From an uncultured bacterium (GTDB lineage: Bacteria > Actinomycetota > Thermoleophilia > Solirubrobacterales > 70-9), in NCBI GenBank assembly GCA_963753385.1, contig CAVWCC010000013.1, positions 13,612 through 77,611 on the forward strand: 64,000 nucleotides of DNA, in the 5' to 3' direction. Below are positions 12,994-63,760 of this stretch, in pieces. Position numbers and translations under genes: made by a program. The first letter of the stretch is position 1; each line of letters begins with the position of its first letter. The notes under the pieces are model-generated. The model did not search any database and was not told where the DNA came from. It saw only the letters and a program-made list of their open reading frames with translations.

Positions 12994-13018
12994 CGCCGAG
13001 CGGGGATGTCCCCAGCTA

Positions 13019-14344: not shown

Positions 14345-14864
<520 letters not shown>

Positions 14865-40470: not shown

Positions 40471-40520
40471 GGTGAACGTCCCGCGCGGCGCGCTATGCAC
40501 CCCCGCGAGGGACGTTCACC
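40471..40520. terminator. Long GC-rich hairpin (12 perfect bp plus 5 more after one mismatch, ~14-nt loop) between convergent genes; no U-tract
   Basis: GGTGAACGTCCC (40471-40482) pairs with GGGACGTTCACC (40509-40520). CGCGG/CCGCG extends the stem. Confidence 0.4.
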
Positions 40521-40563
40521 CCAACGCGGGGCCTGGCCGCATGGGGCACGGCGCGCCGGGTGC

Positions 40564-41415
40564 CTACTCGTACTCGTAGAACCCGTGGCCGGTCTTCCGG
40601 CCGTGCTGGCCGGAGACGACCATGCGCTTGAGGAGCGGCGGCGGCGCGTACTCGGGGCGCTTGAACTCCTCGTAGAGCGAGTCGCAGACCGCGTAGAGCA
40701 CGTCGAGACCGATGAAGTCGCAGAGCGTCAGCGGCCCCATCGGGTGCCCGCAGCCGAGGCGCATGCCCTCGTCGATCGCCTCGCGGCTCGCGAACCCCTC
40801 CTCGTACATCCGCACCGCTGCCATCAGGTAGGGGACGAGCAGCATGTTGACGATGAAGCCCGAGCGGTCCTTCGTCCGGATCGGCTGCTTGCCGATCTGC
40901 TGGGCGAACTCCTCAGCTCGCGCGACCGTCTCGTCGGACGTCTCGAGGCCGACGACTACCTCGACCAGCTTCATCACCGGCACCGGGCTGAAGAAGTGCA
41001 GGCCGAGAACGCGGTCGCGCCGCTTCGTCCACGACGCGAGCTGTGCGATCGGGATCGACGAGGTGTTCGACGCGATGATCGCGCGCTCGTCGAGGAGCTC
41101 GTCCAGGCGCTGGAAGACCGGGCCCTTCACCGCCGCGTCCTCGAAGACCGCCTCGACCACGATCTCGGCCTGAGCCAGGCCTTCGAACTCGTTCGTCGCC
41201 TCGATCCGGCCGAGCAGGGCCTCGGAGTCGGCAGGGGGGAGCTTGCCGGCCTCGACGGCGCGGGCGACCGACTTCTCGATCCGCTCGCGCGAGCGCTCGA
41301 GTGGCGCCGCCTGCGGCTCGTAGAGCGTCACCCCGAGCCCCGCCCTGGCCGCCGCCTCTGCGATCCCGGAGCCCATGAACCCCGCCCCGACCACTCCGAC
41401 CTTCGTCGCTGCCAC
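40564..41415 (-). CDS. 3-hydroxyacyl-CoA / 3-hydroxybutyryl-CoA dehydrogenase
   Basis: KVGVVGAGFMGSGIAEAAA...ASNTSSIPI...GLHFFSPVPVMKLVEVV...GFIVNMLLVPYL. Confidence 0.92.
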   Translation of the reverse strand: MAATKVGVVGAGFMGSGIAEAAARAGLGVTLYEPQAAPLERSRERIEKSVARAVEAGKLPPADSEALLGRIEATNEFEGLAQAEIVVEAVFEDAAVKGPVFQRLDELLDERAIIASNTSSIPIAQLASWTKRRDRVLGLHFFSPVPVMKLVEVVVGLETSDETVARAEEFAQQIGKQPIRTKDRSGFIVNMLLVPYLMAAVRMYEEGFASREAIDEGMRLGCGHPMGPLTLCDFIGLDVLYAVCDSLYEEFKRPEYAPPPLLKRMVVSGQHGRKTGHGFYEYE

Positions 41416-41498
41416 ACCGGTATCTGACCACAGGCCCCGCGTCGGCAGCGGTCACATCCGAGTGCGCCCGCTCGTCATAGAGGTGAAAGGAGGCTTCC

Positions 41499-41774
41499 AT
41501 GCACGCATCCGACACCTCTCAACCGGAAACCGAGAGCATGCTTCAGACGCTCAGCGCCTTCAACGTCGGCCTCGGCGTGATCTCGTTCGCGCTGTTCCCG
41601 TTCCTGCTGCCCGGACTGGCGATCCTGGCGCTGTTCGCGCTCCCGTTGCTACCGCTGATCCCCGTGGTCTTCGTGGGGTGGCTGGCGATTCGGCTCGTGA
41701 TTCGGCTGTCGAGGACCGTCCGGTCGAGCTCGCGCCGCGCGCGGTCGGCCAAGCCGTCGAGTGTGACCGGCTAG
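41499..41774 (+). CDS. Small 2-TM membrane protein, hypothetical
   Basis: AAGGAGG lies 6-8 nt upstream of the ATG. Two hydrophobic segments and a basic tail. Confidence 0.5.
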   Translation: MHASDTSQPETESMLQTLSAFNVGLGVISFALFPFLLPGLAILALFALPLLPLIPVVFVGWLAIRLVIRLSRTVRSSSRRARSAKPSSVTG

Positions 41775-42004
41775 TCGTCGGTCAGCTTGCCGTCGAGCTG
41801 TGCTCGCAGGCTCGCGATCTCGGTCACCGCGGCAGTCACGTAGACCTGGCGCCAGGCGTCGAGCTCCCAGTCGAGGTCGTGGATGTAGCTCTCGATCGAG
41901 GCGACACCGGTCGCCTCGGCGAGGGCGCGCTCGGCCTGCAGCTCGACCACATGCGCACGGGCGTCCGCCGCCGTGACACTCAGGACATCGAACTGCTCGA
42001 ACAT
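41771..42004 (-). CDS. Hypothetical 77-aa helical protein
   Basis: High GC3, GGGAG upstream, no family recognised. Confidence 0.4.
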   Translation of the reverse strand: MFEQFDVLSVTAADARAHVVELQAERALAEATGVASIESYIHDLDWELDAWRQVYVTAAVTEIASLRAQLDGKLTDD

Positions 42005-42141
42005 GACGTAAAGCTCCCATCCCAGGCCCGCGGCCGATATGGGGCAGGCCCGAGTTCTGTGGTTCGGTTATCACCCCTTAGACCGCGCGAGGCCGGCGAA
42101 GTAATCGCGCCACGCCTCCGGCGGCAGGAGCGCCCCCGCCG

Positions 42142-47289: not shown

Positions 47290-47333
47290 TTGACCTGGGG
47301 TGATCCGCGGCGTAGGTTCCCGAACGACCGTTC
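47290..47333 (+). promoter_or_regulatory. Candidate promoter, TTGACC, 17 nt, TAGGTT, followed by the palindrome GAACGACCGTTC
   Basis: Located in the divergent spacer between the HDAC-like gene and kdd. The palindrome at ~47322-47333 sits at the expected transcription start and could be the operator of the TetR encoded at 49674. Confidence 0.35.
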
Positions 47334-47407
47334 ATGAAGGCACGGGTTTGGTGAGCGCCGCAAGGCGCGAAAGCAGGTTTAGCCCCCCGCCAGGGGATGT
47401 TTCCACG

Positions 47408-48439
47408 GTGGAGATCGCGCAGCAACTGGGGGCCGACAGGGTGATCGAGCCACCCGGGTCGCTGCCGCAGCCCGCCGCGAGGCTCGAACCGTCCGGTCCC
47501 TGCCGGCGATTCGAGACGGAGGTCGAGGTCGAGCGGCTCTGTCTCGATTCGACGTCGCACCGCCAGATCCGCGAGGCAGCCGGGGGCGACCCGTACGCGA
47601 TGGCCGCGCGCATCCTGGAGATCGTGGCGGCCCGGGGCAAGATGCACAACCCGGAGACCGACTCGGGCGGCGTTCTGCTCGGCACCGTCAGCGCGGTGGG
47701 GGAGGGCGTTTCCTCGCCGCCCGAGGCCGGCATGCGAGTCGTGACGCTCGCGTCGCTCACGCTGACGCCGCTCCGGCTGGAGGGCGTGAGGAGACTCGAC
47801 CCGGAGTCGCCCCAGGTGGAGGTCGCGGGGACCGCGTATATCTTCGACCGAGCCCCGTGGGCGCCGCTGCCCGACGACCTCCCGCTGTCGGCGGCGCTCG
47901 ACGTGTTCGACGTCTGCGCGGCGGCGTCACATGTCCGCCAACTCGCGTCCGGAGCCCGGACCGTCTATGTGCTCGGGGCCGGGCACGCGGGCAAGCTGGC
48001 GCTCGCGGCGGCGCGCGACGTCTCGCCGGAGGCGACGCTGGTCGCGGTGGACGTGGACGAGGCCGCGGTCGAGCGCACCACCGACCTCGGGCTCGCCGAC
48101 ATCGGCGTCGCCACCGACCTGCGCGATCCGGTCGGGGCGCTCGAGTCGGTGCGTGCGGCGGGGGCGCCGCCCGCTGAGCTGACCGTCGTGGTCGTGAACG
48201 CCACCGGCTGTGAGCCCAGCGCGATCCTGCTCACCGAAGACGAGGGCACAGTCCTGTTCTTCTCGATGGCGACCAGCTTCTCGGCCGTGGCCCTCACGTC
48301 GGACGGGCTGTCGTCGAGCGCGACGATGGTGGTCGGCACGGGCTACGCGCCCGACCGCGGCGCCTACGCGCTCGACCTCGTGCGGCGCTCTCCCGCGCTG
48401 CGCGAGGCGATGGGCGCGGCGAACGGAGCGCTCGCGTGA
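47408..48439 (+). CDS. kdd: L-erythro-3,5-diaminohexanoate dehydrogenase-like
   Basis: GADRVIEPPGSLPQPA...DPYAMAARILEIVAARGKMHNPETDSGGVLLGTV...YVLGAGHAGKLA. This resembles my recollection of Kdd, and it sits next to kce. I chose the GTG at 47408; starts at 47300 or 47354 are possible. Confidence 0.7.
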   Translation: MEIAQQLGADRVIEPPGSLPQPAARLEPSGPCRRFETEVEVERLCLDSTSHRQIREAAGGDPYAMAARILEIVAARGKMHNPETDSGGVLLGTVSAVGEGVSSPPEAGMRVVTLASLTLTPLRLEGVRRLDPESPQVEVAGTAYIFDRAPWAPLPDDLPLSAALDVFDVCAAASHVRQLASGARTVYVLGAGHAGKLALAAARDVSPEATLVAVDVDEAAVERTTDLGLADIGVATDLRDPVGALESVRAAGAPPAELTVVVVNATGCEPSAILLTEDEGTVLFFSMATSFSAVALTSDGLSSSATMVVGTGYAPDRGAYALDLVRRSPALREAMGAANGALA

Positions 48440-48896
48440 GCGCTCATCGCGTCCAGACCCGCTGGGGCGACCTGGACGCCCTCGGCCACGTGGGCCACAC
48501 CGCCGTCTTCACCTACCTCGAGGCGGGCCGGGACGCATTCCTCAAGACGCACGGGATCGCCCGGGACGAGTACGTCGTCGGCCGCTGCTCGGTGACCTTC
48601 CAGCGCGAGATCATGCCGTCGGTCGAGGTCGTCACGGTCGAGTGCGAGACCCGCGAGCTCGGCAGCTCGAGCGTCACCACCAGCGAGCGGATCCTCGACG
48701 AGACCGGGGACTTGCTGGTCGAGGCCGAGTTCGGGATCGTGCTCTGGGACCCCGCGGGCCGCGGATCACGGCCGATCAGCGCGAGGAACGGGCTTCGCTC
48801 GCCAAGGAGGAGAGTAAGAGCGGGCAATCGCTTTCGGAGGGGAGGAGTCCTAGATGGCCTGGAACAGCGACCCGGTCGTCCTCACCGTGGCGGTGA
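48436..48896 (+). pseudogene. 4HBT/YbgC-type hotdog acyl-CoA thioesterase with an unresolved 3' end (probable 1-nt frameshift near 48782)
   Basis: VQTRWGDLDALGHVGHTAVFTYLEAGRDAF...CSVTFQREI...VEAEFGIVLWD. The starting frame then runs on for 368 aa across kce. The frame of ORF 48210..48896 gives a plausible tail, ISAEERASLAKEE... Confidence 0.6.
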
Positions 48897-49681
48897 CCGG
48901 CGCGGACGTCTTCCGCGAGAACAACCCGAACATCCCGTACACGACCGAGGAGATCGCGAACTCGTCGATCGAGGCGGCCGGCGCCGGCGCCACGGTCGTT
49001 CACCTCCACGTCCGCGAGGACGACGGCACGCCGAGCGGCCGGCCCGAGCTCTTCGTCGACGTAATCGACCGGATCCGTGCAGGCTCCGACCTGCTGACGA
49101 TGGTCTCCACCGGCGGCGCCAACGACATGACGATCGAGGAGCGGACGACCGGCCTCGAGGCGAAGCCGGACATCTCCGGCGTCGAGTCGGGCTCGATGAA
49201 CTTCGGCGACGAGACCTTCATCACGCCGCCGCCGGCGGGCCGTGGGATCGTCAAGCGCGCGACCGAGGCTCAGATTGCGCTCGAGGTCGAGGCCTTCGAC
49301 GTCGGCCATGTGGTGAGCGCGGTGCGCTGGCTCGAGCAGGGCATCCTCGAGGCGCCGATGCGGATCAACCTGGTGTTCGGGGTGCCAGGCGGGATCGATG
49401 CCTCGCCGGAGGCGCTCGACGCGATGCTCCGGCCGCTGCCCGAGGGCACGTTCTGGACGGTCACCTGCATCGGCCGCCACCACCAGCGGATGCTGGGCCT
49501 GGCGCTGCTGAAAGGCGCGCCGGGGATCCGCACCGGTCTTGAGGACGTCGCCTACATCTCGAAAGGCGTCCACGCGCCCTCGAACGCGGCGCTGGCCGAG
49601 ATGGCCGTCGGGCTCGCGAAGACGCTCGGCCGCGAGGTCGCGACCCAGGACCAGACGAGGGAGCTCCTGCACCTTGGCTGA
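48854..49681 (+). CDS. kce: 3-keto-5-aminohexanoate cleavage enzyme (BKACE / DUF849 family)
   Basis: VVLTVAVTGA...PYTTEEIANSSIEAAGAGATVVHLHVRE...MVSTGG...INLVFGVPGG...IRTGLED. Confidence 0.88.
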   Translation: MAWNSDPVVLTVAVTGADVFRENNPNIPYTTEEIANSSIEAAGAGATVVHLHVREDDGTPSGRPELFVDVIDRIRAGSDLLTMVSTGGANDMTIEERTTGLEAKPDISGVESGSMNFGDETFITPPPAGRGIVKRATEAQIALEVEAFDVGHVVSAVRWLEQGILEAPMRINLVFGVPGGIDASPEALDAMLRPLPEGTFWTVTCIGRHHQRMLGLALLKGAPGIRTGLEDVAYISKGVHAPSNAALAEMAVGLAKTLGREVATQDQTRELLHLG

Positions 49682-50345
49682 TCCCGCGGCAACCGTCGCC
49701 GAGCCGGCCGCTGGCTCCCGCCGCGCGCGCGGCCCCGAGACGCGCGAGGCAATTCACGCCGCCGCGATCGAGCTCTTTGCGAGGCTCGGGTACCACGCAA
49801 CGTCGATGCGCGCGATCGCCGCCGCGGCCGAGGTGCAGCCCGCTGCGATCTACCACTGGTACCCGTCGAAGGAGGCGATCCTGGTCCGCCTCCAGGACGA
49901 CTTCATGGACCGCCTGACGGAGAAGGTGGTCGCCGCCATGGAAGCCCACCCCTCGCCGGCGCTGAAGCTCGCGGCGTCCGTCCGCGAGCACGTGGTGTTC
50001 CACGGCCTCCACCGGCGCGAGGCGTTCGTCACCGACAGCGAGATCCGGGCGCTGACCGACGGGCCGCGCCAGGCCCTGATCGCCCAGCGCGATGAGTATC
50101 AGGCGACGTTCGTGGAGCTGATCCGCGACGGGATCCGGGACGGGTCGCTGCGCGCGTCCGACGCCCGGGTCGCCGCCTACGCGATCCTGCTCCAGTGCAC
50201 GGGCGTCGCGCTCTGGTTCGACCCCGAGGGCCCGCTGCCGCTGGACGAGGTCGCGGAGCTGCACGTCGAGTTGGTGCTCGGCTCGCTGGGGGCGTCCGCC
50301 GAGCTGATCGGCGAGGCGATCGCGGGGGTGCGCGATGACCGTTGA
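49674..50345 (+). CDS. TetR/AcrR family transcriptional regulator
   Basis: TREAIHAAAIELFARLGYHATSMRAIAAAAEVQPAAIYHWYPSKEAI. TTG at 49674 is the only start near the kce stop; the ATG at 49539 would overlap kce by 143 nt. Confidence 0.8.
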   Translation: MADPAATVAEPAAGSRRARGPETREAIHAAAIELFARLGYHATSMRAIAAAAEVQPAAIYHWYPSKEAILVRLQDDFMDRLTEKVVAAMEAHPSPALKLAASVREHVVFHGLHRREAFVTDSEIRALTDGPRQALIAQRDEYQATFVELIRDGIRDGSLRASDARVAAYAILLQCTGVALWFDPEGPLPLDEVAELHVELVLGSLGASAELIGEAIAGVRDDR

Positions 50346-51330
50346 GCGCGTGAGGCCGCCGGCCCTGCCCAAGAACGCGACCATCGCGGTCATCGCGGCG
50401 TCGAGCCCGCCTCAGACCCGCTCCGAGATCGAGCAGGCGACCGAGTACTTCGAGTCGCGCGGGCATACGGTGGTCTTCGGGCCGAACCACCGCAAGGTGC
50501 ACGGCTACCTGGCCGGCACCGACGAGGAGCGCGCCGCCGATCTGCAATGGGCGCTCTCGGAGCCCGGCATCGACATGGTGCACGCGCTGATGCGGCGGCT
50601 ATGGGGTGGCGCGCCTTCACGACCGGATCGATTGGGGCGCGATCGGCGACCCGCGGATCGTGTGCGGCTTCAGTGACATCACAGCGCTGCACCTGGCGCT
50701 CGCCGCGCACGCCGGCTGGGTCACGTTCTACGGCCCCAACTTCCTTCGGTTCACCCGCAAGCGGAAGGAACTTATGAAGGAGACCGAGGATTGGTTCCAC
50801 AGGGCGTTCCAACCGAAGCCGCTCGGCGCGTGTGTTCGAGGACCCCGAGGACCCCTACGTGCTGACCGTCGGGGAGGGGACGGCCGAGGCGCCGCTCGCG
50901 GGCGGCTGCCTGACGCTTCTCTGCTCGAGCATCGGCACCCCGTATGAGGTTCGGACCGACGGATGCATGGTGATGGTGGAGGACCTGATCACCGAGACCT
51001 ATCTGGTGGATACGGCCCTCAACCATCTGATCCGTGCGGGCAAGCTGGCCAAGACGGCTGGGTTCGTGTTCGGGACGAACGTGGACCTGAAGCCTCTGAC
51101 GATGCCCGAGGCAGCCGAGTCGATGTTGTCGGTGGAGGAGATCCTGGACGAGCTGATCGCGCCGCTCGGGCGTCCCCGCGATCGCGAACGTCCCGATCGG
51201 ACACGGAAGACAGATGGCGACGATGCCGCTCGGGGCCAAGGTGCGCATCGACGGCGACCGGAAAGACGCTCGAGGTGATCGAGGCCGCCGTCGAGCCCGA
51301 AGCGAGGAAACAGGAGGAGGAGGAGAATGA
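50335..51330 (+). pseudogene. LD-carboxypeptidase (peptidase S66, LdcA/MccF-like), at least 4 frameshifts
   Basis: The protein is pieced from ORFs 50335..50676, 50606..50947 and 50832..51278 plus two further frames. Pieces read IAVIAASSP...GYLAGTDEERAADL / DWGAIGDPRIVCGFSDITALH / VFEDPEDPYVLTVGEG...GGCLTLL / VPAIANVPIGHG / MATMPLGAKVRIDG. Confidence 0.8.
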
Positions 51331-53155
51331 GCGCAATGGACGGATTGGAAGACGCTGGCGGCGACGGCGATGCTGGCGGCGGCGGTCTCGCTCGGACTCG
51401 AGGCCTCGCGCGGCTCCGCCCAGGACTCCGCGTCCGGGACGGCGACAAGGGCGTGCTGCGCATCGGCTGGGCGCAGGACCCGAAGAACCTGAACCCCTTC
51501 GTCGGCGTCAACGAGGAGGAGTACACGATCTGGGCGATCAACTGGGAGCCTTTCAACTGTTCGACACCGAGGATCTGTCGCCCGCCCCGGGGATCGCCGA
51601 GAGCTGGGAGGTCTCGGAGGACCGGAAGACGATCACATTCAACCTGTCAGAATGCGATTTGGTCCGACGGCGAGCCGATCACCTCCGAGGACGTCAAGTG
51701 GTCGCTCGAGGTGCTGGGCGAGAACGGGATTCTGTTCACCGGGTACACCAGCAGCGTCGAGTCGATCAAGACTCCGGACGACGAGACGGTCGTGTTGGAG
51801 ATGAAGCGCCCGGACACCCGCGTCATCGGCGGCCTCTACATCTTCATCCTCCCCGAGCACATCTGGGGGAAGGTGCCGGTCGAGGAGCTGAGCGGCTGCC
51901 TACCAGCCCGAGATCCCGATGGTCGGGAGCGGGCCCTATATCGTCACCGAGTTCGAACGCTGCCGGATCACCCGGATGGAGGTGAACCCGGAGTGGCGCG
52001 GCGAGGCGCCCGGCTTCGAGGAGCTCCAGTTCATCAGCTACGGGAGCCAGGACGCCGTCGAGCGGGCCTTGACGCTCGGAGAGATCGACTTCACCTCGAG
52101 GTCGAGCCGGCGACGTTCGAGCGGCTGGGCGACCAGCAGGGGATCGAGACCATCATGCGCCCGCCTTCGTTCACCGAGCTCTCCTTCAACCTGTGCTCGG
52201 AGGAGGACTGCCCGGACGCGAAGTTCAATCCCGCCGTGCAGGACAAGACGATCCGCCAGGCGGTCGCCTACGGCATCGACCGGGAGCGGATCAACGCGAT
52301 CGCCACACAGAACACGGCGTTCGTCGCCCACGGGATGCTGCCCTCGTTCTACAAGGACTTTTACGAGGTCCCCGAGCTGGACTACCCGTATGACGCCGGA
52401 GATGGCGAACCAGATCCTCGACGACGCGGGCTGGGAGCTGAACGGGGACGGCATCCGTGAGAAGGACGGGACAGGTGGCCTCCTTCGACCTCTACGCGCG
52501 CTCGGAGTCGCAGCTTACACCTCAGATGGCGAAGCTGATCGCCGAGCAGGCGCAGAGATCGGGATCGAGTTCAACGTCCAGATCGTGAGCACCGACAAGC
52601 TCACCGAGCTGACGATCCGCAAGGAGGACGGTAAGCCGGCGCCGGAGTTCGACACGTTCATCTGGGGCTGGGGCGGGGACCCCTACGACCCGAGCGCGCT
52701 GTCGGGCCTGTACGACGCGATCAGATCGGCTCGTCGTCGGACTCGTTCTACTCGAACCCCGAGTACGACCGGCTGTTCGAGGAGCAGCTCGCTGGCGGCG
52801 ACGACCAGAAGGACGAGCGCCGGGAACTGATCACGGAGATGGTCGCGACCTCCAGGAGGATCTGCCGTACATCGTCCTCACGGAGGATCCGAACCTGCAG
52901 GCCTACCGTTCGGACCAGATCGCCGGAGTCGAGCCGGTATGCCCGGCCGACGACACCGGCGACATCATCTGCGAGGCGGTCTCCTACGAGGGCATCCTCG
53001 GCCTGGAGCCTGCCGCCGGCGCGGACGATGACGACGGCGGGGGCGGCGGCGCGGTGATCGCGATTATCGCCGCGGGTGTGGTGATCGGCGCCGGCGTCCT
53101 GCTGCTGCGCTCGCGCCGCCGCCGCGACGCCGAGCCGATGGAGCTTGAGGAGTAA
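51327..53155 (+). pseudogene. Peptide/nickel ABC substrate-binding protein (family 5), copy 1, many frameshifts, C-terminal TM anchor
   Basis: VLRIGWAQDPKNLNPFVG / DLSPAPGIAESWEVSEDRKTITFNL / WSDGEPITSEDVKWSLE / MVGSGPYIVTEFER... lie in alternating frames. Tail reads VIAIIAAGVVIGAGVLLLRSRRRRDAEPMELEE. Confidence 0.8.
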
Positions 53156-53184
53156 CCGGTCGTGAAAGACAACGAGAGAGGAAC

Positions 53185-55013
53185 GTGATGAGGTCGAAGA
53201 GCAGATGGATCCGCGCGGGGATGCTCGCGTTCACGGTGGCGCTGGTCAGCGCCGTGGCCGCGCTGCCGGCCGGCGCGCAGGACGACGCGGCCACCGAGAG
53301 CGACGTGCTTCGTATCGGCTGGGGCCAGGATCCGCAGACGCTGAACCCGTTCGTCGGCCTCGACGAGGAGGACTTCACGGTCTGGGGGCTCACCTGGGAC
53401 CTGCTGGTCAACTTCAGCCCCGAGGACCTGTCGCCCACCGCCGGCATCGCCGAGAGCTGGGAGGTGTCCGATGACCAGAAGACCGTGACCTTCACGCTCG
53501 ACCCGGACCGGACGTGGTCGGACGGCGAGCCGGTCACGTCGGCCGACGTCAAGTGGTCGCTCGAGACGCTCGGCTCGGAGGGTGACCTGTTCACGAGCTA
53601 CACGACGAACGTCACCTCGATCGAGACCCCGGACGACCAGACCGTCGTGATCAACACCAAGGTGCCCGACGCGCGGATCGTCGGCGGCCTCTTCATCTAC
53701 ATCCTCCCGCAGCACATCTGGGGCGAGGTCCCGCTGGAGGAGGTGACCACCACGTACAAGCCAGAGATCCCGATGGTGGGCTCCGGCCCGTACATCGTCA
53801 CCGAGTTCGAGCGCGGGCGGATCCTGCGCATGGAGGTGAATCCGGAGTGGACGGGTGAGGAGCCCGCCTACGAGGAGATCCAGTTCATCAAGTACGGCAC
53901 GGAGGACGCGGTGGAGCGAGCCCTGCAGCTGGGCGAGATCGACATCGTCGCCGAGGTCCAGCCCGCCACCTTCGACCGGCTCGGTGAGCAGGCGGACATC
54001 GACACGTTCCGGGGCGCGTCGCCCTCGCTACACGGAGCTCGCGTTCAACCTCTGCTCCGAGGAGAACTGCCCGGACGCCGAGTTCAACCCGGCGGTACAG
54101 GACAAGACCGTCCGCCAGGCGATCGCGTATTCGCTCGACCTCCAGCGAATCACCGACATCTCGTCGCTCGGGCACATCGTTCGCCGGCGACACGGGATCC
54201 TGCCCTCGTTCTACAGGTCGTTCTACGAGGTGCCGGAGCAGCTCTACCCGCAGGACGTCGAGCTTGCGAACCAGATGCTGGACGACGCCGGCTGGGAGCA
54301 GAGCGGCGACGGGCCGCGCTCGAAGGACGGGAGTCGAGCTGTCGTTCGACCTGTACGTCCGGTCCGAGTCCCAGTCGGACATCCAGGCGGCGAAGCTGGT
54401 CGCCGAGCAGGCCGCCGAGATCGGCGTCGAGTTCAACGTCCAGGTCGTGAGCACCGGCAAGCTCACCGAGCTGACGGTCCAGAAGGTGGACGGCAAGCCG
54501 GCCCCGGCGTTCGACACGTTCATCTGGGGCTGGGGCGGGGACCCGTACGACCCCAGCTTCCTGCTCAGCCTGTTCACGACCGCCGAGATCGGCGCTTCCT
54601 CGGACGCGTTCTACTCCAACCCGGAGTACGACCGGCTGTTCGAGGAGCAGGCCAGCGAGTTCGACACCGAGGCGCGGAAGGAGCTGGTCCAGGAGATGGT
54701 CGCGATCACCCAGGAGGACCTGCCGTACATCGTCCTCACCGAGGACCCGAACCTCCAGGCGATACCGGACCGACCTGCTCGCTGATGTCGAGCCGGTGTG
54801 TCCCGCCGGGAGACGGGGACCTGTTCTGCCAGCAGGTGTCCTACGAGCCGCTGGTGGCCTGGCGCCGGGGTCCGGGAGCTCCGAGCGGACGAGCCGCCGG
54901 CGCTGCCCGGCGGCGTGATGGCGATCGGTGCTTTGGTGATCGGCGATCGCGTTTTCCTGTTCGGCCGAGAGCGGGGGCGGCGGAAGCGAGAGCCCCTGGA
55001 GCTGGAGGCGTAG
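53185..55013 (+). pseudogene. Peptide/nickel ABC substrate-binding protein (family 5), copy 2 (tandem paralog), several frameshifts, C-terminal TM anchor
   Basis: ORF 53185..54450 is good up to ~54020. It then continues in the frames of ORFs 53855, 54264 and 54798. Tail reads GVMAIGALVIG...RRKREPLELEA. Confidence 0.8.
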
Positions 55014-55038
55014 GCCTCGGGAGCGAGGAGAGCGCGGA

Positions 55039-56003
55039 ATGAGCGCCCGTTGGCTGGCGGCAAGGTCGCGGCGGCGCTGGTGACGCTGGTCTTCGTCCTC
55101 GTCTTCAACTTCTTCCTGTTCCGGGTGGTGGGGGACCCCACCGCGCAACTGGCGCGCCTGCCGCAGACCACCGAGGAGATCGCGGAGCTGCGCGCCGAGT
55201 ACGGGCTCGACAAGCCGCTGATCGGCCAGTTCGCCGACTACGTCGGCGACACGCTGACGGTTCGACCTCGGCATCAGCCAGCGCTCGCGTGAGCCCGTTT
55301 GGGACGAGATCAAGGCGCGATCCCGTGGACGCTGCTGTTGGTCGGGACCGGGACGCTGATCGCGACGCTGATCGGGAGCTGGATGGGGGTGAAGGCCGCG
55401 ACTCAACGCGGCAAGAGAACCGACGACAGCCTGCTCAGCTTCAGCCTGTTCACGTACTCGGCGCCCGAGTACTGGATCGGGATCATCCTGATCCTGGTCT
55501 TCGCCGTCGGGATCCCGATCCTGCCCGGCAGGGCAGCAGGTGACCCCGGGGGTGGAGTTCTCGAGCTGGTTCGCCGAGGCGCTGGACGTGCGGAGCACCT
55601 CATCCTGCCCGTGACGGCGATGACCCTCATGCTGCTGGGCCAGTACTTCCTGATCATGCGCTCGTCGATGGTCGACGTCCTCACCGAGGACTTCATCACG
55701 GTCAAGCGGGCCACCGGCCTGCCTTGGCACCGGGTCGTCCGCAACCATGCCGTGCCGAACGCGCTGCTGCCCCTGGTGACCCTGTCTGCGATCCAGTTCG
55801 GGGTCGTGGCGGGCGGCGCGATCACGATCGAGACGCTCTTCTCGTGGCCCGGCCTCGGCGAGCTGAGCTTCAACGCCATCACCGACAAGGACTTCCCGAT
55901 GCTGCAGGGGACGTTCCTGGTCTTCTCGGTCGGCGTGATCTTCGCCAACCTGCTGGCGGACTGCCTCTACTTCTTCCTCGACCCGAGGGTGCAGGCGAAG
56001 TGA
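55039..56003 (+). pseudogene. Peptide ABC permease (DppB/OppB-like), several frameshifts
   Basis: LVTLVFVLVFNFFLFRVVGDP / FDLGISQRSREPVW / PWTLLLVGTGTLIATLIG... lie in different frames. A compensating pair of indels lies around 55535-55600. Confidence 0.8.
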
Positions 56004-56875
56004 CCGGCGCCATCGAGGCCGGCGGCAGGCGAGCCGATCGCGGGCGAAAGAGCTCGACCTCTTCGGCACTGGCAGGGCCGGTTCGGGGTCGCCGTCCTCG
56101 CTCTGTTCATCTTCATGGCCATCTTCGGCAGCGCTGATCGCGCCCGACGACCCCGATGCCTCGAGCCTGGACATGCTCGCCGCGCCCAGCTCGGATCACT
56201 CTCGGCACCACCGAGAGCGGCGCGGACGTACTCTCGCAGCTCCTGGTCGGCGCGCGTGTTTCGATCGTCGTCGGATTCGCGGCCGCGCTCATCTCGGCCG
56301 TCATCGGCGCGGCCGTCGGGCTCGCGAGCGGCTACTTCGGCGGCTGGACGGACCGGATCCTGGACGGGCTCGAGAACTGGTTCCTGGTGATTCCGACCCT
56401 GCCGTTGATGATCGTGCTCTCGAGCCTGCTCGACCCCTCGCTCGGCGTCCTGATCCTGGTCATCGGGCTCACCTCGTGGGCGGGCACGGGACGGATCGTC
56501 CGCGCGCAGGTGCTGACCCTGCGCGAGCGGGCCTTCGTCGAGCGGGCCCGCGCGCTCGGGGCGAGCCACTGCTACATCATCCGAACGCACATTTTTCCCA
56601 ACACGCTGCCGCTGATCTTCGCCAACACGGTGCTGATCGTCGCGGTTGCAATCCTCTCGGAATCGGCGCTCGCGTTCCTCGGGCTCGGCGATCCGACCCG
56701 GATCTCATGGGGCACGATGCTCGAGAACGCGTTCAACGCAGGTGCGCCCAGCGCCGAGGCGTGGTGGTACGTGATCCCGCCGGGGCTCTGCATCACATTC
56801 CTGGTGCTGTCGGTAGCCATGCTCGGCTACCTGTTCGAGGAGTACGTGAACCCGCGACTGCGGGAGGAGAGGTGA
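56000..56875 (+). pseudogene. Peptide ABC permease (DppC/OppC-like), frameshifts in the 5' third
   Basis: GTGA junction with the upstream gene. ORF 56156..56875 carries LGTTESGADVLSQLLVGARVSIVVG...; the N-terminal TM segment lies in other frames. Confidence 0.8.
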
Positions 56876-57893
56876 GCCCCTCCTAGAGGTCAGGGACCTC
56901 CAAGTCGCACGCACGGCGGCACGCCGATCGTCGACGGCGTCGACTTCGAGCTCCAGCACGGCGAGGCCCTGGGGCTGGCCGGCGAGTCGGGATGCGGGAA
57001 GACGACGACGGCGCTGGCGCTGATGAAGCTGCTGCCGCCGGCGCTCGAGCAGGCGGGCACGATGACGCTGAACCTGAAGGGGCGGACGAGCCGATCAACA
57101 TCGGGCGGCGCACCGAGGCGGGGATGCGCTACGTGCGCTGGCGCCACATCTCGCTGGTCTTCCAGGGGGCGATGAACGCGCTCGACCCCGTGCAGCGGGT
57201 CGACGATCAGTTCGCCGAGGCGATCAGCCTGCACTCGCCGTCGGCGAGCCGAGCGAGGTGAGCGGGCAATCGCGGGAGCTGCTGGCGACGGTGGGGCTGA
57301 CCGCAGAAGCTCGGGCGGCGCTACGCGCACCAGCTCTCGGGCGGCCAGCGCCAGCGGGTGATGATCGCGCTGGCGCTCGCGTGCAATCCCTCGCTGGTGA
57401 TCGCCGACGAGCCGACCACCGCCCTCGACGTCGTCATGCAGGCGCAGGTGCTGCAGCTGCTCGAGCAGCTTCGCGAGCGGCTCGGCCTGGCGTTGATCCT
57501 GATCTCGCACGACCTCGGGGTCCTCGCCGAGACCTGCGACCGGATCGCGGTCATGTACGCCGGGCGGATCGTCGAGATCGGGCCGGTCGCGATCGGTGTT
57601 CTCCGACCCTCAGCACCCTTACACGAAGCGCCTGCTCGAGACGGTGCCGTCGATCGGCGGCAGCCGCGGGCTCGGCGATCCGATCCCCGGGCGGACCGCC
57701 CGACCCCGGCGAGCCGCCCGCGGGCTGCCGGTTCCAGACCTCGCTGCCCTTACGCGGAGGATCGCTGCCAGGCCGAGGATCCGGCGCTGCACGAGGTCGG
57801 CGCCGCACACGCCGCTGCCTGCCACTTCGCGCCCTGGGGCGAGTGGCCCGAGGAGGGCATCTCGCAGGCCTGGAGGCGGGGGCGACCGGATGA
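56872..57893 (+). pseudogene. Peptide ABC ATPase (DppD/OppD-like), several frameshifts
   Basis: [54 protein letters not shown] and ISHDLGVL are found in three different frames. Confidence 0.8.
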
Positions 57894-58880
57894 GCGCGCC
57901 GCCGCTGATGGAGGTGCGCGACCTCTGCGTGGAGTTCCGCGTCGAGCGGCGGACGCGCGCGCGCCGTCGACGGGGTCTCGCTGGAGTGGCGCAAGGGCGA
58001 GGTCCTGGGGGTCGTCGGCGAGTCCGGCTGCGGTAAGTCGACGCTGGCCCGGGCGATGCTCGGCCTCGTCGAGCCGGCCGCGGGCGAGGTCGCGCTCGAC
58101 GGGAAGCCGCGTCGAACGGCAAGGCCGGCCATGCCGAGCTCCGCAGGCGGCTGCAGATGATCTTCCAGGACCCTTACCAGACGCTGAACCCGCGCCAGCG
58201 CGTGCGGACGATCGTCGCCGAGCCGCTCGTCGTTCAGGGGGTGGCCAAATCCGAGCACGAGGCGCAAGGTCAAGCAGGCGCTCGAGGACGTCGGGCTCGA
58301 CCCCGAGCGCTTCGCCGAGCGCTACCCGCACCAGCTCTCCGGCGGGCAGCGCCAGCGGGTCGCGATCGCCGCGGCGCTGGTGCTCGAGCCGGACGGCCTG
58401 ATCTGCGACGAGCCGGTCTCGATGCTGGACGCCTCGGTCCAGGCGCAGATCCTGCGGGTCCTGCTGGACCTCCAGAAGCAGCGCGAGCTGGCGCTGCTCT
58501 TCATCACCCACGACCTCAGCCTGGCCTGGTCGCTATGCGACCGGATCGCGGTGATGTACCTCGGCCGGGTCGTCGAGCAGGGGAGCGCGACGGACGTGAT
58601 CGAGCGCCCGCAGCACCCCTACACCCAGGCGCTCGTGACCGCGGTGCCGATCGCCACGCCGGGTGGGCGGCGGCGAGCGCGAGCTCCTCAGCGGCGAGCT
58701 GCCCGACGCGACCGACGTGCCGACGGGGTGCCGCTTCCATCCGCGCTGCCCGAAGCGCTTCGAGCCCTGCGACATGGTCGATCCGGAGCTGATGCCGGCC
58801 GGCGGGCGCGACCAGCTCGCCGCCTGCCTGCTGCACGATCCGGCGGCGGGCGCCAAGGCCCGACGACGCGTGAGCGCTGA
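57890..58880 (+). pseudogene. Peptide ABC ATPase (DppF/OppF-like), several frameshifts
   Basis: [10 protein letters not shown]..., [67 protein letters not shown] and HPYTQALV are spread over three frames. Confidence 0.8.
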
Positions 58881-58888
58881 GCGCTGGC

Positions 58889-59825
58889 GTGACATCGCGG
58901 GGCCGGTCGGCCGGCTGGAGACCGGGCGCGCGGAACGCGATCACCGACGTTCCCGGTGTCCGCGTGGGCCACTCCCAGGCGGAGAGCGGGCAGCGCACCG
59001 GGGTGACGGTGGTGGCGCCGCCCGAGCTGCCGACCCCCGCCGGCGTCGCGGTCGTGAACGGAACCGGCGAGTTGAGCGCGAAGCTCGAGATCGACGAGGT
59101 GGGCTTCATGGAGACGGCGGTCCACCTCTGCGGGACGCATGCGCGTCGGGACCGTGTACCAGGCGGTGATCACGGCGTCCGGCCGCGGCCCCCAGGACGT
59201 CGTCATGCCCGTGGTGGGCGAATGCGACGACGGCGACCTCGCCGACTCGCGCACGATCGCGCTCGCCGACGTCGAGAACGCGGTCGCGGCCCTCGGGGCC
59301 GAGGTGGCCGAGGGCAGCGTCGGCGCCGGCACCGGTATGCAGTGCTTCGACTTCCCGGGCGGGATCGGGACGGCGTCGCGGGCGGTGTCCGGCCACCACG
59401 TGGGCGTCCTGTTGCTCTGCAACTTCGGGGACCGCGAATACCTCGACCTGCTCGGCACCACCCTCGAGCCCGCTCCGCGACCAACCGCCGCCGACGGCTC
59501 GTGCATCGCGGTCTGCGCCAGCGACGCGGCGCTCTCAGCCCAGCAGCTCCGGCGCCTCGCCCTGCGCCCACTGCTCGGCCTCGCCCGCGCCGGCTCTTAC
59601 GCCTCGCACTGGTCGGGCGAGATCGGCCTCGCCTTCTCGACGACGGACCGAGGCGGGGTGCCGAACTCCGAGCTAAGCGGCTACTTCGCCGCCGCCTACG
59701 AGGCGTCGCACGAGGCCGTGCTCAACTGCCTCGTCGCCGCGAAGCCCGCCGAGCGGCTCGACGGGACGATGCAGGACGCCTTCCCGGTCGAGCTCGCCCG
59801 CCGGCTCGCCGCCGAGCGCGGATGA
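58889..59825 (+). pseudogene. DmpA/BapA-type (peptidase S58) L-aminopeptidase / beta-aminopeptidase family, one or more frameshifts near 59135
   Basis: RNAITDVPGVRVGHSQ...TGVTVV...VNGTGE is in the frame of ORF 58889. VGTVYQAVI...GAGTGMQCFDFPGGIGTASR... is in ORF 59139..59825. Confidence 0.75.
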
Positions 59826-61133
59826 GCGATTCCCGGCTCCGCGAGGAGGTCGTAGGCCTCGCGCAGGAGCTGATCCGGATCGACACGTCGAACCCGCCGG
59901 GCAACGAGACGCCGGCCGCCGAGCTGGTCGCGGAGTACCTGCGCGGCGCGGGCGCCGACGTCGAGCTCCTTGGCCCGGACCCATCTCGCCTCAACCTGGT
60001 GGCGCGCGTACGCGGCCGCGGCGAGGGACCGTCCGTGATGTTGCTGGCCCACACCGACGTGGTCCCGGCGCCGAGTGCGGGGTGGACCGTGGGTCCGTTC
60101 GACGGGACGGTGCGCGACGGCCTGCTGGTCGGCCGCGGCGCTGCCGACATGAAGGGCGAGCTGGCCGCGCGGACCGTCGCGCTGGCCGCGTTCGCGCGCT
60201 CCGGCGAGCGCCCAGCCGGCGACCTCGTGCTGGTTGCCGAGGCGGACGAGGAACGCAACACGGCCGATGTTGGACTCTCCTGGCTGGTCCGCGAGCGCCC
60301 GGACCTGCGCTGCGACTACGCCCTGAACGAAGGCGGCGGAGTCCTGCTCGAGCTCGCCGACGGCCGCCGGGTCGTGACCATGGCGGTGGGGGAGAAGCAG
60401 GTCACCTCGTTGCGCCTGCGCGTGCACGGGACCGCCGGCCACGCTTCGGTTCCGGCCGCCGCCGACAACCCGCTCCGCCACGCCGCGGCGGCCGTTGAGC
60501 GCCTGCTCGCCGCCGAGGCCCCGATGCAGATGACGCCGGTGGTCATCCGCGCGCTTGAGGCACTCGGGGTACCCGACGACGTCCCCGACGCTGAGCGCCT
60601 GCGCTGGGCACAGGACCTGCACCCGATCCTCGCCGACCTCCTGCCGCCGATCACCCGGCTGACGGTCACCCCGACCGGCCTCGCGACGCACGAGCCGGCG
60701 AACGTGATCCCGCCGTACGCCGACGTGATCTGCGACTGCCGCGCGCTCCCCGGCCAGTCCGAGGCCGACATCACACGACCACATCGACGCGGCGCTCGGC
60801 GCCGGGTTCGAGTACGAGATCGAGCTGCTCGAGCCGCTCGCGGGCGGCAGCGACTCGCCGATCGACACGCCGCTCTACCGAGTGTGCGCCGAGTACGTCG
60901 CAGGCCGGTTCCCCGGCGCCGGGCTCCTGCCGCTCGTGACCCCGGGGTTCACGGACTCCCACTGGGTCCGGGAGGCGTTCGGCACGGTTGCGTACGGTTT
61001 CGCTCCCGTGTTCGCCACCGACCTCGACACTTACCTCGACGGCGTGCACGGAGCCGACGAGTCCATCGACCTCGCGGACCTGGTCGAGATGGCGGAGTTC
61101 AACCTGCATGCGCTCCGGGCGCTGGCCGGCTAG
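59822..61133 (+). pseudogene. M20-family metallopeptidase (dipeptidase/deacylase), one frameshift near 60775
   Basis: LIRIDTSNPPGNE...LLAHTDVVP...GRGAADMKG...EADEE...NEGGG comes first, then after the shift HIDAALGAGFEYEIELL...TDSHW (ORF 60882..61133). Confidence 0.8.
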
Positions 61134-61135
61134 CG

Positions 61136-61955
61136 GTGGGCTCTGCGGCGGGCAGGATCGTCCTGATCACGGGGTCGACGGACGGCCTCGGCCTGGCAAC
61201 CGCGCGGCGGCTTGCGGGGCTGGGGGCCTGCGTGCTGGTCCATGGCCGCAATCCGCAGAAGCTCGAACGCGTCCTGTCCGGCATGTCCTCCGGGGGCGAG
61301 TCCGGCCCGCACGGCTACCTTGCTGACCTCTCTTCGCTGGACGAAACGCGGCGGCTCGCGCGCGACGTCGCGGCCGAGCACGAGCGCCTCGACGTGCTCG
61401 TCAACAACGCCGGGGTCATCAGCCCCGACCGGCAGGTCAGCCGGGACGGAATCGAGCTGGCGTTCGCGGTCAACTACCTCTCGCACTTCCTGCTGACGCT
61501 CGAGCTCCTGCCGCTGCTCGCGGCAACCGGCGGGCGGGTGGTGAACGTCGCCTCCATCGGCCAGCAGGCGATCGATTTCGACGACGTCATGCTGGAGCGC
61601 GACTACAGCGCGTCGCGGTCGTACTCGCAGAGCAAACTGGCGCAGATCATGTTCACAATCGAGCTCGCGGAGCGGCTCGGCCCGGACGCGCACGGTGACC
61701 GCGAACGCGCTCCATCCCGCGACGCTGATGGACACGAAGATGGTCCGCGCGTTTGGCAGCCAGGTGCTGAGCACCGTGGCCGAGGGCGTGGAGGCGACCG
61801 TCAGGCTGGCGGCGGGGGACGAGCTCGACGGGGTGACGGGGCGGTACTTCGACGGCCTCGAGGAGGCGACGGCCGATCCGCAGGCATACGACGCCGATGC
61901 CCGTCGCCTTTTGTGGGAGCTGAGCGAAGAGCTCACCGGCGCCAGGCTGCGCTAG
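61136..61955 (+). pseudogene. Short-chain dehydrogenase/reductase, one frameshift near 61690
   Basis: IVLITGSTDGLGLATARRL...VLVNNAGV...YSQSKLAQIMF is in the frame of ORF 58889..62011. The C-terminus VTANALHPATLMDTKMV... is in ORF 61695..61955. Confidence 0.8.
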
Positions 61956-62013: not shown

Positions 62014-62496
62014 GTGAGCGAGGTGCGGGTGCACACGACGATCGAAAGCCCGGTGGGCGACCTGCTCTTGATCGGCGACGGCGAGCGGTTGCTCGGGCTC
62101 CACATGCAGGCCGGCCGCAGGCCCGGCCACGTGCCGCCGGATTCGAAGACGGCGAGCGAGCCCTTCGCCGCAGCCCGGGAGCAGCTCGGCGAGTACTTCG
62201 CGGGCGAGCGGACTGACTTCGAGCTGCCGCTGGCACCCGTCGGCACGCCGTTCCAGGAGGAGGTCTGGAGTGCCCTGCGCGAGATCCCCTACGGGGAGAC
62301 CGCCAGCTACGGCGAGCTGGCGGAGCGGATCGGGCGCCCGAGCGCCGCGCGCGCGGTCGGCATGGCGAACGGGCGGAACCCGATCTCGATCATCGTCCCG
62401 TGCCACCGGGTGATCGGCGCGACCGGCGAGCTGACCGGGTACGCGGGCGGCGTCGAGCGCAAGCGGCTCCTGCTGGACCTGGAGGGCGGCGCCTGA
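62014..62496 (+). CDS. ogt: Methylated-DNA--protein-cysteine methyltransferase
   Basis: Active-site motif [10 protein letters not shown], with YGELA...[15 protein letters not shown] start after GAGGAGG. Confidence 0.9.
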
Positions 62497-62497
62497 T

Positions 62498-63760
62498 TCA
62501 GGCGGGCGCCGGCTCTTCCGCGGGCAGCAGGCCGGCGTCGGCGGGCGACTTCTCGCCACGCGTGCGAAGGAGGAACGGCAGCGACAGCGCGGAGATCCCG
62601 GCCGATATGACGTAGGAGGTCGGATAGCCCCAGACGTCCGCCGCCCGCCCCAGCACCGGCTGCGCGACGACGCCCCCGGTCGAGCTCATCAGCGAGTCGA
62701 ACGAGAGGATCGTGGCCCGCTGCTGCGAAGGGATCATGTCGTTCAGGTAGGCCTGGCGAATCGGCATCGAGGCGGCGAACAGGAGCCCCCAGACGGAGAT
62801 CAGAGCGATCACGGCGCCGAAGCTCTCGATCAGGCCGATGCCGAGGAGCGCCGCAACGCTGAGCACCTCGGCGGTGATCAGCGCCGAGGTCCGCCGGCGG
62901 AAGAGGCCGCGGAGGAACGGGGTCGCGAAGCCGCCCAGGATCTGCGCGCCGGCGACGATCGCGGCGACGAGACCGGCGACCCCGTAGGCGGTCGGGTCGC
63001 CGTAGAGCTCGAGCAGGTACGGCTGGAGCGCGTAGAAGACGTAGATGCCCACGCCGCCGGTCCACGGTGCGGCCAGCATGAGGTAGCGGACCGAGGGCAC
63101 GCGCCATCCGTACTGGATCGAGTTTGCGGTGATGTCGCGCATGCCCGCGAGCGGGCTCGCCTCGCGTTTTCGCTCGAACCCGAGATCGTGCATCAGCGCG
63201 AACGCGGTGAAGAACATCAGGATCAGGATCGCGGCCCGCAGCACGAACGGAAACCCGAGGCTCACCGCCTGGGCGAGGAACCCGCCCGCGATCGAACCGG
63301 TGAGCATCCCGACGCCGGTCACGATCTGGCCGCGGGCGAGCACCGACTCGAGCGTGCCCTGGTACTGCGTGAACGCGAGCGCGTCGACCAGCCACGCCTC
63401 GACGGCGCCGGAGAAAAACGTGAAGCCGAGCCCGAGGAAGAGCGAGACGAGCGCCCAGCTCCAGAAGGGCGCCTCGACCTGCCACAGCATCACGTAGAGG
63501 GCAGTGGTGACCGCCAGGGTCACCGTCCCGAGCAGGAACGACATGCGCCGCCCCCACATGTCGGCGACGATCCCGGTCGGGACCTCGAAGATGACCATTC
63601 CGGCGGTGAAGAACGCGTTGGCGGCGAAAGCCTCGAGGTTGTTGAGCCCCGCGTCGAGCAGGAAGATCGTGTTGATGCCCCAGATCAGCGACGCCGCGAC
63701 CGTGTTGCCCAGCATCAGCGCGTAGTACGTGCGCTTGACGGAGGTCGGCGTGGCGGTCAC
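62498..63760 (-). CDS. MFS transporter
   Basis: 420 aa with ~12 hydrophobic segments; GIVADMWGRR-type loop between TM2 and TM3. Confidence 0.9.
   Translation of the reverse strand: MTATPTSVKRTYYALMLGNTVAASLIWGINTIFLLDAGLNNLEAFAANAFFTAGMVIFEVPTGIVADMWGRRMSFLLGTVTLAVTTALYVMLWQVEAPFWSWALVSLFLGLGFTFFSGAVEAWLVDALAFTQYQGTLESVLARGQIVTGVGMLTGSIAGGFLAQAVSLGFPFVLRAAILILMFFTAFALMHDLGFERKREASPLAGMRDITANSIQYGWRVPSVRYLMLAAPWTGGVGIYVFYALQPYLLELYGDPTAYGVAGLVAAIVAGAQILGGFATPFLRGLFRRRTSALITAEVLSVAALLGIGLIESFGAVIALISVWGLLFAASMPIRQAYLNDMIPSQQRATILSFDSLMSSTGGVVAQPVLGRAADVWGYPTSYVISAGISALSLPFLLRTRGEKSPADAGLLPAEEPAPA

Follow-up and report, generated by a model that had tools for sequence, protein, structure and literature searches.

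Clustered 1-2 nt indels across ten consecutive genes of a Solirubrobacterales peptide import operon: very probably uncorrected consensus errors of a metagenome assembly

Peptide ABC importers of the Dpp/Opp type are known in gene clusters with peptidases. In host-restricted or recently niche-shifted bacteria, an operon can be pseudogenised so that all genes of the contiguous unit are disrupted and the neighbours stay intact. Bacterial pseudogenes are marked by a deletional bias and a long-tailed indel size spectrum, and neutral decay lasting long enough for 45 indels is expected to bring several-fold more substitutions, and with them several stop codons and tens of additional deviations at conserved columns. 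A further source of broken genes is the sequencing itself, and the textbook profile of Nanopore consensus error is one of homopolymer deletions. Residual indels in long-read-only metagenome-assembled genomes (MAGs) split genes by shifts of 1-2 nt with the protein otherwise conserved (PMC12313526; for the general problem, PMC9262707). Such indels are missing from short-read data; they occur in patches, and often in soil MAGs of lower coverage and high complexity.

The locus considered here lies in a 64,000-nt window, the whole stretch of DNA that was analysed, from an uncultured bacterium of the Solirubrobacterales. Ten consecutive genes on its + strand carry about 45 frame-breaking indels of 1-2 nt between 50,589 and 61,694, detected in frameshift-aware alignments to orthologs and, independently, with an HMM that uses composition only. 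Only about 2-3 comparable events occur in the remaining 52 kb. The genes of the block and its surroundings, with their events, are as follows.

47300-48439, + strand, left flank, kdd: no supported frameshift against orthologs and L081
48436..48853, + strand, 4HBT thioesterase gene: isolated -1 at ~48780, 12 codons ahead of the stop
48854-49681, + strand, left flank, kce/BKACE: no supported frameshift against orthologs and L081
49677-50345, + strand, left flank, tetR (Pfam TetR): no supported frameshift
50335..51295, + strand, LD-carboxypeptidase (Pfam Peptidase_S66), five frame segments: 4 events, +1 at ~50589, 50827, 51167 and 51258, backed by 8-10 of 10 orthologs
51296..53152, + strand, SBP1, family-5 solute-binding protein, first of two tandem divergent copies: 10-11 events, ~51437, -1 51548, -2 51649, +1 51896, -1 52095, +1 52394, +1 52467, -1 52553, -1 52710, -1 52850
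53185..55007, + strand, SBP2, second family-5 copy: 7-8 events, +1 at 54027, 54172, 54183, 54192, ~54335 and 54761; others at ~54810, 54857 and 54885
55024..56003, + strand, permease 1 (BPD_transp_1): 5 events, -1 55059, +1 55259, -1 55315, +1 55523, -1 55590
55997..56875, + strand, permease 2 (BPD_transp_1): 2-3 events, possibly -1 ~56070; +1 56135; -2 56199
56880..57893, + strand, ABC ATPase D (atpD): 6-8 events, +2 ~56909, -1 57070, -1 57250, +1 at 57305, 57590, 57685 and 57735
57890..58880, + strand, ABC ATPase F (atpF): 4-5 events, +1 ~57945, +2 58106, +1 58262, +1 58660
58889..59825, + strand, S58/DmpA-type aminopeptidase: 2 events, +1 59143 and +1 ~58920, the latter common to L091
59822..61133, + strand, M20 peptidase: 1 event, +1 ~60772
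61135..61955, + strand, short-chain dehydrogenase (SDR): 1 event, +1 ~61694 (CAC[G]GTGACC)
62014-62496, + strand, right flank, ogt: no supported frameshift
62498-63760, - strand, right flank, MFS transporter: one frame in the HMM and one tblastn segment

The underlying operon is ordinary and conserved, with peptide uptake and degradation as its probable role. Pfam searches with the window fragments and with the intact L081 genes returned an importer set consisting of a family-5 SBP (SBP_bac_5), two BPD_transp_1 permeases and two ABC_tran/oligo_HPY ATPases, and the cluster further contains an LdcA-type S66 LD-carboxypeptidase, a DmpA/S58 aminopeptidase and an M20 dipeptidase. These peptidase families suggest that cell-wall or D-amino-acid peptides may be recycled. 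More than 30 Solirubrobacterales-type loci share this gene order. The single SBP gene of the initial annotation proved to be two tandem, divergent genes. A false tandem duplication created by assembly was considered and found no support, as equal-depth contigs of organism A show the order SBP, intergenic region, SBP, permease.

The frame hops were recovered by three independent methods, namely a GC3 frame plot, a codon-position composition HMM that makes no use of homology, and frameshift-aware protein-to-DNA alignment to orthologs from 10 loci together with the intact L081 proteins. The GC3 plot displays repeated hops on the + strand within 50.3-62 kb. The HMM finds 27 same-strand frame switches without an intervening stop codon between 50,592 and 61,694, including those at 50592, 50831 and 51168 in the LD-carboxypeptidase gene, and only two convincing switches outside the block (~591 and ~48,811). 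In the alignment tally of about 45, each event is backed by at least 6 orthologs. The earlier description of ten consecutive genes broken by 1-2 nt indels between intact flanks is borne out by all three approaches, and the ORF fragments it listed agree with the frames found; the number of events, however, is roughly twice what it had implied. It had also proposed one event each for the S58, M20 and SDR genes, which holds for the latter two but not for S58, which has two. In the SDR, the adh_short domain of the first frame ends at profile position 169 of 195. A frame break lies in the same stretch of the L012 SDR, with a different net shift.

Event density reaches 4-5.5 per kb over 50.3-58.9 kb and 1-2 per kb from there to 61.7 kb, with an event-free stretch across SBP1 and SBP2 from 52850 to 54027. 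Altogether, 45 of the ~48 events in the window fall within 18% of its length (binomial P ~2e-30). The kce, tetR, ogt and MFS genes, previously described as reading cleanly, do so. The two isolated events previously placed at ~600 and ~48782 are real: at ~591, the AMP-binding and AMP-binding_C domains lie in different frames, and the -1 in the 4HBT gene at ~48,780 stands apart from the block by 1.8 kb on its upstream side and is the sole break in 47300..50345. Such sporadic frameshifts fit an assembly that carries residual indel error.

The spectrum comprises 28 insertions and 12 deletions, each of 1-2 nt, with larger non-3n indels absent and, in the same tally of 40 events, hardly any codon-sized gaps in the block. 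Compensating indels had been pointed out and were recovered as a +1 at 55523 with a -1 at 55590 and as three +1 events inside 21 nt (54172, 54183 and 54192). No association with homopolymers was detected (20% against a background of 20.7%), and tests of 3-mers and 4-mers over 40 window events and 343 events elsewhere gave a weak, 1.3-1.9-fold enrichment and no methylation-type motif. A GATC motif, suggested by a few sites, was dropped after this test. Programmed ribosomal frameshifting or recoding was also rejected, in view of up to 11 sites per gene and of intact single-frame orthologs in L002, L003, L024, L081 and L084.

After frame correction, the roughly 3,800 codons of the block contain no in-frame stop, in keeping with the earlier remark that nonsense substitutions were lacking. 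At columns conserved in at least 95% of intact orthologs, the block deviates at 13 of 1017 (1.28%), compared with 4 of 422 (0.95%) for the window flanks and 0.4-2.5% for intact orthologs. The block sits mid-range among intact orthologs, with no surplus of changes at conserved residues, and the amino-acid conservation noticed between the breaks is thereby upheld. Moreover, eight of nine block genes are no less identical to intact orthologs than the ortholog-to-ortholog median, and S66 is within 0.02 of it. In the event-free part of SBP2, the differences listed against a ~97% identical organism A contig fall almost all at third codon positions, which indicates purifying selection. The nearest relative shifts along the block and its surroundings, being L082 for SBP1, permease 2 and atpF and L001 for several flank genes.

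The comparison with orthologous loci that the initial annotation had proposed returned intact, single-frame orthologs in short-read-style assemblies, along with the normal conserved-column deviation given above. With the intact MEGAHIT-style contig L081 as reference, the homologous cluster has 0 frameshifts in L002, L003, L024 and L084. The loci L081-L090, whose kce proteins are at least 90% identical, are only 76-82% identical in DNA and serve as intact references, not as same-strain controls. In contrast, 19 of 26 'MFD contig_N' loci from Nanopore-only MAGs carry 2-51 frameshifts, and L091 carries 32; nearly all of these frameshifted relatives show an insertion bias. The MFD-LR MAGs are Nanopore-only Flye assemblies that received one round of Medaka polishing (PMC12313526). 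The long-read locus L012, one of the frameshifted MFD loci, and the short-read L081 share flanks of 95.5-97.4% identity with no non-3n indel, but between them a sharply bounded block from SBP to atpF holds 67, and S58 and M20 are clean again. Mismatches rise too within that block, where identity falls to 84-93% from 96% in the flanks.

At an identity of only 89%, the independently assembled L091 has an extra base in common with the window at 56135, 57305 and 58920 and partly at 57590, which is beyond what random error alone predicts. At the permease 1 sites, it is frame-preserving in five of five. An ancestral pseudogene common to both was rejected: at least 17 of the overlap events are window-specific, both assemblies show 0 stops and normal protein conservation, and the common site 56135 is missing in a short-read contig. 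A real sequence difference that costs no function may underlie one or two of the events, first of all ~58920. Here the N-terminus of S58 may truly differ and use an alternative start, because the frame opened by the GTG at 58889 continues into the conserved ARNAITDVPGV motif.

The independent contigs built from short reads belong to related strains, not demonstrably to that of the window, and most are 93-98% identical. They carry the frame-restoring state at 11 of 11 spanned positions (52395, 52554, 54027, 54172, 54183, 54192, 54762, 55257, 56135, 59143 and 54809/54813) and reproduce no window indel. In SBP1, the base at 52395 is missing in X6 and X11, and X6 has an extra G after 52554. Organism A contigs (93-97% identical) are without the bases at 54027, 54172, 54183, 54192 and 54762. 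The base at 55257 in permease 1 is missing in X1/X2 and in one X4 contig, that at 56135 in permease 2 in a near-identical X6 contig, and that at 59143 in S58 in a 306-nt contig of X4 (98% identical). No unpredicted indels were seen in event-free stretches of contigs at 94% identity or above. Searches of sequencing runs with the block and with a clean stretch gave none that was near-identical, with a maximum word share of 0.07-0.10, and read-match 'joints' with sides of just 20-45 nt were taken as chance matches.

The indels of the block are very probably consensus errors that were left uncorrected where a long-read metagenome assembly had poor local support, much as the initial annotation had preferred in naming a locally unpolished or low-coverage stretch. 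An artefact is favoured because the changes are indels only, with neither stops nor excess amino-acid change, because the 1-2 nt spectrum is insertion-biased, because near-identical short-read contigs lack the indels wherever they span them, and because the signature is common in Nanopore-only MAG loci and absent in short-read assemblies. The organism would then possess an intact conserved operon, and the record would hold ~45 uncorrected consensus errors. Judging from its relatives and error signature, and not from documentation, the window most likely stems from a Nanopore-type long-read metagenome assembly. The local consensus would have rested on few or heterogeneous reads, so that single-base insertions and deletions could survive polishing. 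Coverage may have dropped locally, or one contig may have collected reads from related, co-occurring strains or from paralogous ABC-transporter genes. We infer both the platform of the contig and the reason why the events are concentrated here.

A real and very recent inactivation, in which the operon is dispensable in this strain and the ~45 frameshift mutations form a true decayed operon, is highly improbable. The indels of the deposited sequence do break all ten genes, a few sites are common to L091, and 93-98% identical relatives without indels are also what a strain-specific event would give. Nevertheless, decay would need ~45 frameshifts without accompanying substitutions, against the lack of stops and the normal count at conserved residues; the 28:12 ratio of insertions to deletions, none above 2 nt, is the opposite of the pseudogene spectrum; and the tight clusters, such as the three +1 events within 21 nt, are likewise against it. 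Furthermore, many independent Nanopore-only MAGs carry the identical signature and no assembly from short reads does, and 56135, one of the sites common to L091, is missing in the near-identical short-read contig. Were the indels nonetheless real, a localised indel-only mutational process would have just inactivated a whole operon in one soil Solirubrobacterales strain without substitutions, which is exceedingly improbable. Error-prone repair synthesis or transcription-associated slippage confined to one transcription unit would be the candidates, and the process would have hit the same operon again in relatives such as L012 and L091.

There is next to no chance that the frame changes arose from forcing alignments onto diverged orthologs. 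A few calls near junctions and variable termini do vary by ortholog (e.g. 54807-54907, 56011-56076 and 57854-57875), but the homology-free HMM places its 27 switches at the same coordinates, which refutes this for the bulk of events; stop codons interrupt each frame at the predicted switches, and short-read contigs differ by exactly 1 nt at predicted sites. Within the artefact reading, a mixed-strain or collapsed-repeat consensus is a credible if tentative proximate cause in place of mere low coverage: assembly or polishing would have drawn in reads from related strains or from paralogous ABC-transporter operons and so yielded an inconsistent consensus. SBP-to-atpF is the error hot spot of L012 as well, with mismatches up, the nearest relative changes along the block (L082, L001), and some errors occupy identical columns in L091. 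Reads could readily cross-map at the tandem divergent SBPs and the conserved ATPase genes, and microdiversity is high in such soil samples (PMC12313526). On the other side, the block is without the excess of amino-acid substitutions that a strain mosaic might give, and the tandem SBP order, backed by an independent dataset, is not obviously a false duplication.

For this record, automatic annotation would report ten pseudogenes or about thirty gene fragments in place of what is, almost certainly, a single intact operon that imports and degrades peptides, and 'operon loss' or 'genome decay' inferred from it would be wrong. Patchy, sharply bounded and insertion-biased frameshift clusters are common in this gene cluster among Nanopore-only MAG loci. 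Frameshifts have to be taken into account when such MAGs are used for pseudogene counts, coding density or metabolic reconstructions. Should accurate reads reproduce the indels, the block would stand as an unusual example of an operon inactivated by indels alone.

In gene content and order, the block matches the Dpp/Opp-type importers clustered with peptidases, but it has two tandem SBP genes (62% identical) where all fetched relatives have one. It resembles a pseudogenised operon in the disruption of every gene beside intact neighbours, yet is without nonsense mutations, an excess at conserved residues, a deletion bias or larger deletions, and its 93-98% identical relatives are intact at every tested site. 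Compared with the textbook Nanopore consensus, its events are without a homopolymer or motif link. With the residual indels of long-read-only MAGs, it shares genes split by 1-2-nt shifts in otherwise conserved proteins, indels missing from short-read data and patchy damage. Set against the sporadic background of those MAGs, the window is more extreme, with ~45 events in 11 kb beside clean flanks, and in this it is like L012.

The frame-hopping block at 50.3-62 kb lies on the + strand of the window. By Pfam hits on its fragments, it carries in order an LD-carboxypeptidase (S66), two family-5 solute-binding proteins (SBP1 and SBP2), two BPD_transp_1 permeases, two ABC ATPases (D and F), an S58/DmpA aminopeptidase, an M20 peptidase and a short-chain dehydrogenase (SDR). 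It is preceded by kdd (KDD_N), a 4HBT thioesterase gene, kce (BKACE) and a TetR regulator gene, and followed by ogt and then an MFS transporter gene. The synteny of the cluster is kept in over 30 Solirubrobacterales-type MAG loci. The lysine-fermentation-type genes kdd, 4HBT thioesterase and kce (47300-50345 with the TetR gene) also keep their place across relatives, directly 5' of the TetR regulator gene and of the peptide operon; that they are linked to it in function, for instance by using lysine or beta-lysine derived from peptides, is no more than a guess. The SDR gene (61135-61955) is missing from L001, the closest GTDB relative, where ogt directly follows M20, and is present in the relatives' loci L012, L081, L082 and L091.

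With about 70% G+C across the window, long ORFs arise in every frame, and ORF lists by themselves are thus unreliable. A frameshift-aware protein-to-DNA aligner was written for the analysis and validated with planted indels. Its queries were the orthologous ORFs of ten loci and, in a second run, the twelve intact proteins of L081, a short-read-style contig ('k141_') in which the entire cluster is unbroken. Approximately 45 frame-breaking indels of 1-2 nt (hereafter events) were found, each backed by at least six orthologs:

LD-carboxypeptidase: four events, all +1
SBP1, 51296-53152, + strand, family-5 solute-binding protein, first of a tandem pair: 10-11 events
SBP2, 53185-55007, + strand, family-5 solute-binding protein, second of the pair: 7-8 events
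Permease 1: five events
Permease 2: two or three events
ATPase D: six to eight events
ATPase F: four or five events
S58 aminopeptidase: two events
M20 peptidase: one event
SDR: one event

Moreover, a GC3 frame plot shows coding signal on the + strand throughout ~50.3 to ~62 kb with a repeatedly shifting phase, and a homology-free HMM of codon-position composition places 27 frame switches without a stop at coordinates matching the aligned events. The initial annotation, which had every gene of the block broken, was thus right and even understated the case. Events run at 4-5.5 per kb as far as 58.9 kb and at 1-2 per kb after that, an overwhelming enrichment; the proposed fall to one event per gene holds for M20 and SDR, but not for S58. 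The neighbours do read cleanly, as no supported frameshift appears in ortholog alignments of kdd, kce, tetR and ogt, and the MFS gene occupies one reading frame. In the rest of the window, just two HMM switches are convincing, at ~591 and ~48,780-48,811, agreeing with single events previously placed at ~600 and ~48782. The former, again isolated, breaks the frame of an acyl-CoA-synthetase-type gene (+ strand, genes 3-590 and 391-1092) and leaves AMP-binding and AMP-binding_C in successive frames. The latter is an isolated -1 at ~48780 in the 4HBT thioesterase gene (48436-48853, between kdd and kce), 12 codons ahead of the stop; in the uncorrected frame the ORF continues to 49542. Two stretches have no clean coding call by the composition HMM: 12297-14397, where 825 and 722 nt of non-coding sequence enclose a 554-nt segment and which may be the 'PD array' mentioned earlier, and 40341-42140, a segment with several internal stops. 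G+C at 50001-56000 is 0.67-0.68, below the flanks (0.70-0.74), and coding-frame GC3 is also somewhat reduced there; the errors or the genes themselves may account for the dip.

Very probably the breaks are an artefact of assembly or polishing rather than real biology, as the initial annotation had favoured. Neutral decay fixing 45 indels would be expected to bring several-fold more substitutions, including stops and tens of extra conserved-column changes. After frame correction, no in-frame stop occurs in ~3,800 codons, in line with the earlier impression of absent nonsense changes and well-conserved residues between breaks. At columns with at least 95% agreement among intact orthologs, the block deviates at 13 of 1017 (1.28%), compared with 0.95% for the window's flank genes and 0.4-2.5% for individual intact orthologs. 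Identity to intact orthologs equals or exceeds the ortholog-to-ortholog median in eight of nine block genes, with S66 within 0.02, so the coding information is undamaged except for the indels. The latter comprise 28 insertions and 12 deletions, every one of 1-2 nt, with codon-sized gaps almost absent and three +1 events packed into 21 nt. Real pseudogenes show a deletional, long-tailed indel spectrum, the opposite of this one. Relaxed selection and such a spectrum, two defining signs of a decayed operon, are both lacking here, and real recent decay is very improbable. No link of the events to homopolymers or motifs was found; among the nine extra bases that could be placed exactly, three are A, within GC-rich context.

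Independent short-read contigs point the same way. Contigs from several soil metagenomes and from organism A, a relative known from short reads, match parts of the block, mostly at 93-98% identity, and every one spanning a predicted event has the frame-restoring state:

52395, 52554: contigs
54027, 54172, 54183, 54192, 54762, 55257: contigs
59143: contig
56135: near-identical contig

Among contigs of at least 94% identity, no indel occurs where no event was predicted. Additionally, the window and L091, an independent assembly 89% identical to it, share three or four sites (56135, 57305, 58920, and 57590) at which, compared with every intact reference, an identical base is added in one and the same column of the alignment. 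An ancestral pseudogene common to both is excluded: of the window's events in the overlap, at least 17 occur in the window only, and apart from the indels both sequences are conserved. Site 58920 may be a genuine, tolerated N-terminal difference of S58, because an alternative start, GTG 58889, is in frame with the conserved motif that follows. At 56135, the near-identical contig lacking the extra base suggests a recurrent error.

The SBP tandem looks like a real duplication, old or recombinational, and not an assembly duplication. All ~30 relatives fetched have a single SBP gene, whereas the window has two; the proteins are only 62% identical, the distance of orthologs from different species. 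SBP1 is nearest to the L082/L005 type, SBP2 DNA is 93-97% identical to an organism A contig, and organism A contigs of equal depth back the order SBP, intergenic, SBP, permease. Where SBP2 is free of events, nearly all of the differences listed against an organism A contig (~97% identical) are at third codon positions, which indicates purifying selection.

Events also follow assembly technology when L081 proteins serve as common reference. Short-read-style assemblies of the cluster (L002, scaffold; L003; L024, NODE_; L084, JGI) have zero frameshifts, 2-51 events are found at 19 of the 26 'MFD...contig_N' loci, and L091, an ENA contig and the closest long relative, has 32; insertion bias and absence of stops are common to nearly all event-bearing loci. 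Patchy insertion-biased clusters, with as many as 51 events within 12 kb, are frequent in the 'MFD contig_N' and ENA 'contig_N' loci: L012 (1-12345), L091, L007, L011, L013, L019, L023 and L027-L030. The MFD-LR MAGs were assembled with Flye from Nanopore reads only and given one Medaka polishing round, and the catalogue was screened by its authors for Nanopore-associated errors in MAGs of lower coverage (PMC12313526). Between long-read L012 and short-read L081, 4 kb of flank is 95.5-97.4% identical with no non-3n indels, SBP to atpF forms a sharply bounded block of 67, and S58 and M20 are clean again; the same genes are hit in the window. We infer a long-read source for the window's contig. 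Plain low coverage could plausibly concentrate the errors, as could a pileup that mixes related strains or paralogous transporter genes; recurrence of the hot spot in L012 and the changing nearest relative along the block speak for the mixed pileup. The block stands as a warning for the annotation of such MAGs and for pseudogene statistics drawn from them. Its underlying genes make up a Dpp/Opp-type peptide importer of the ordinary kind, with peptidases clustered beside it; its frameshifts fit a known class, the residual indel errors of assemblies made from long reads only.
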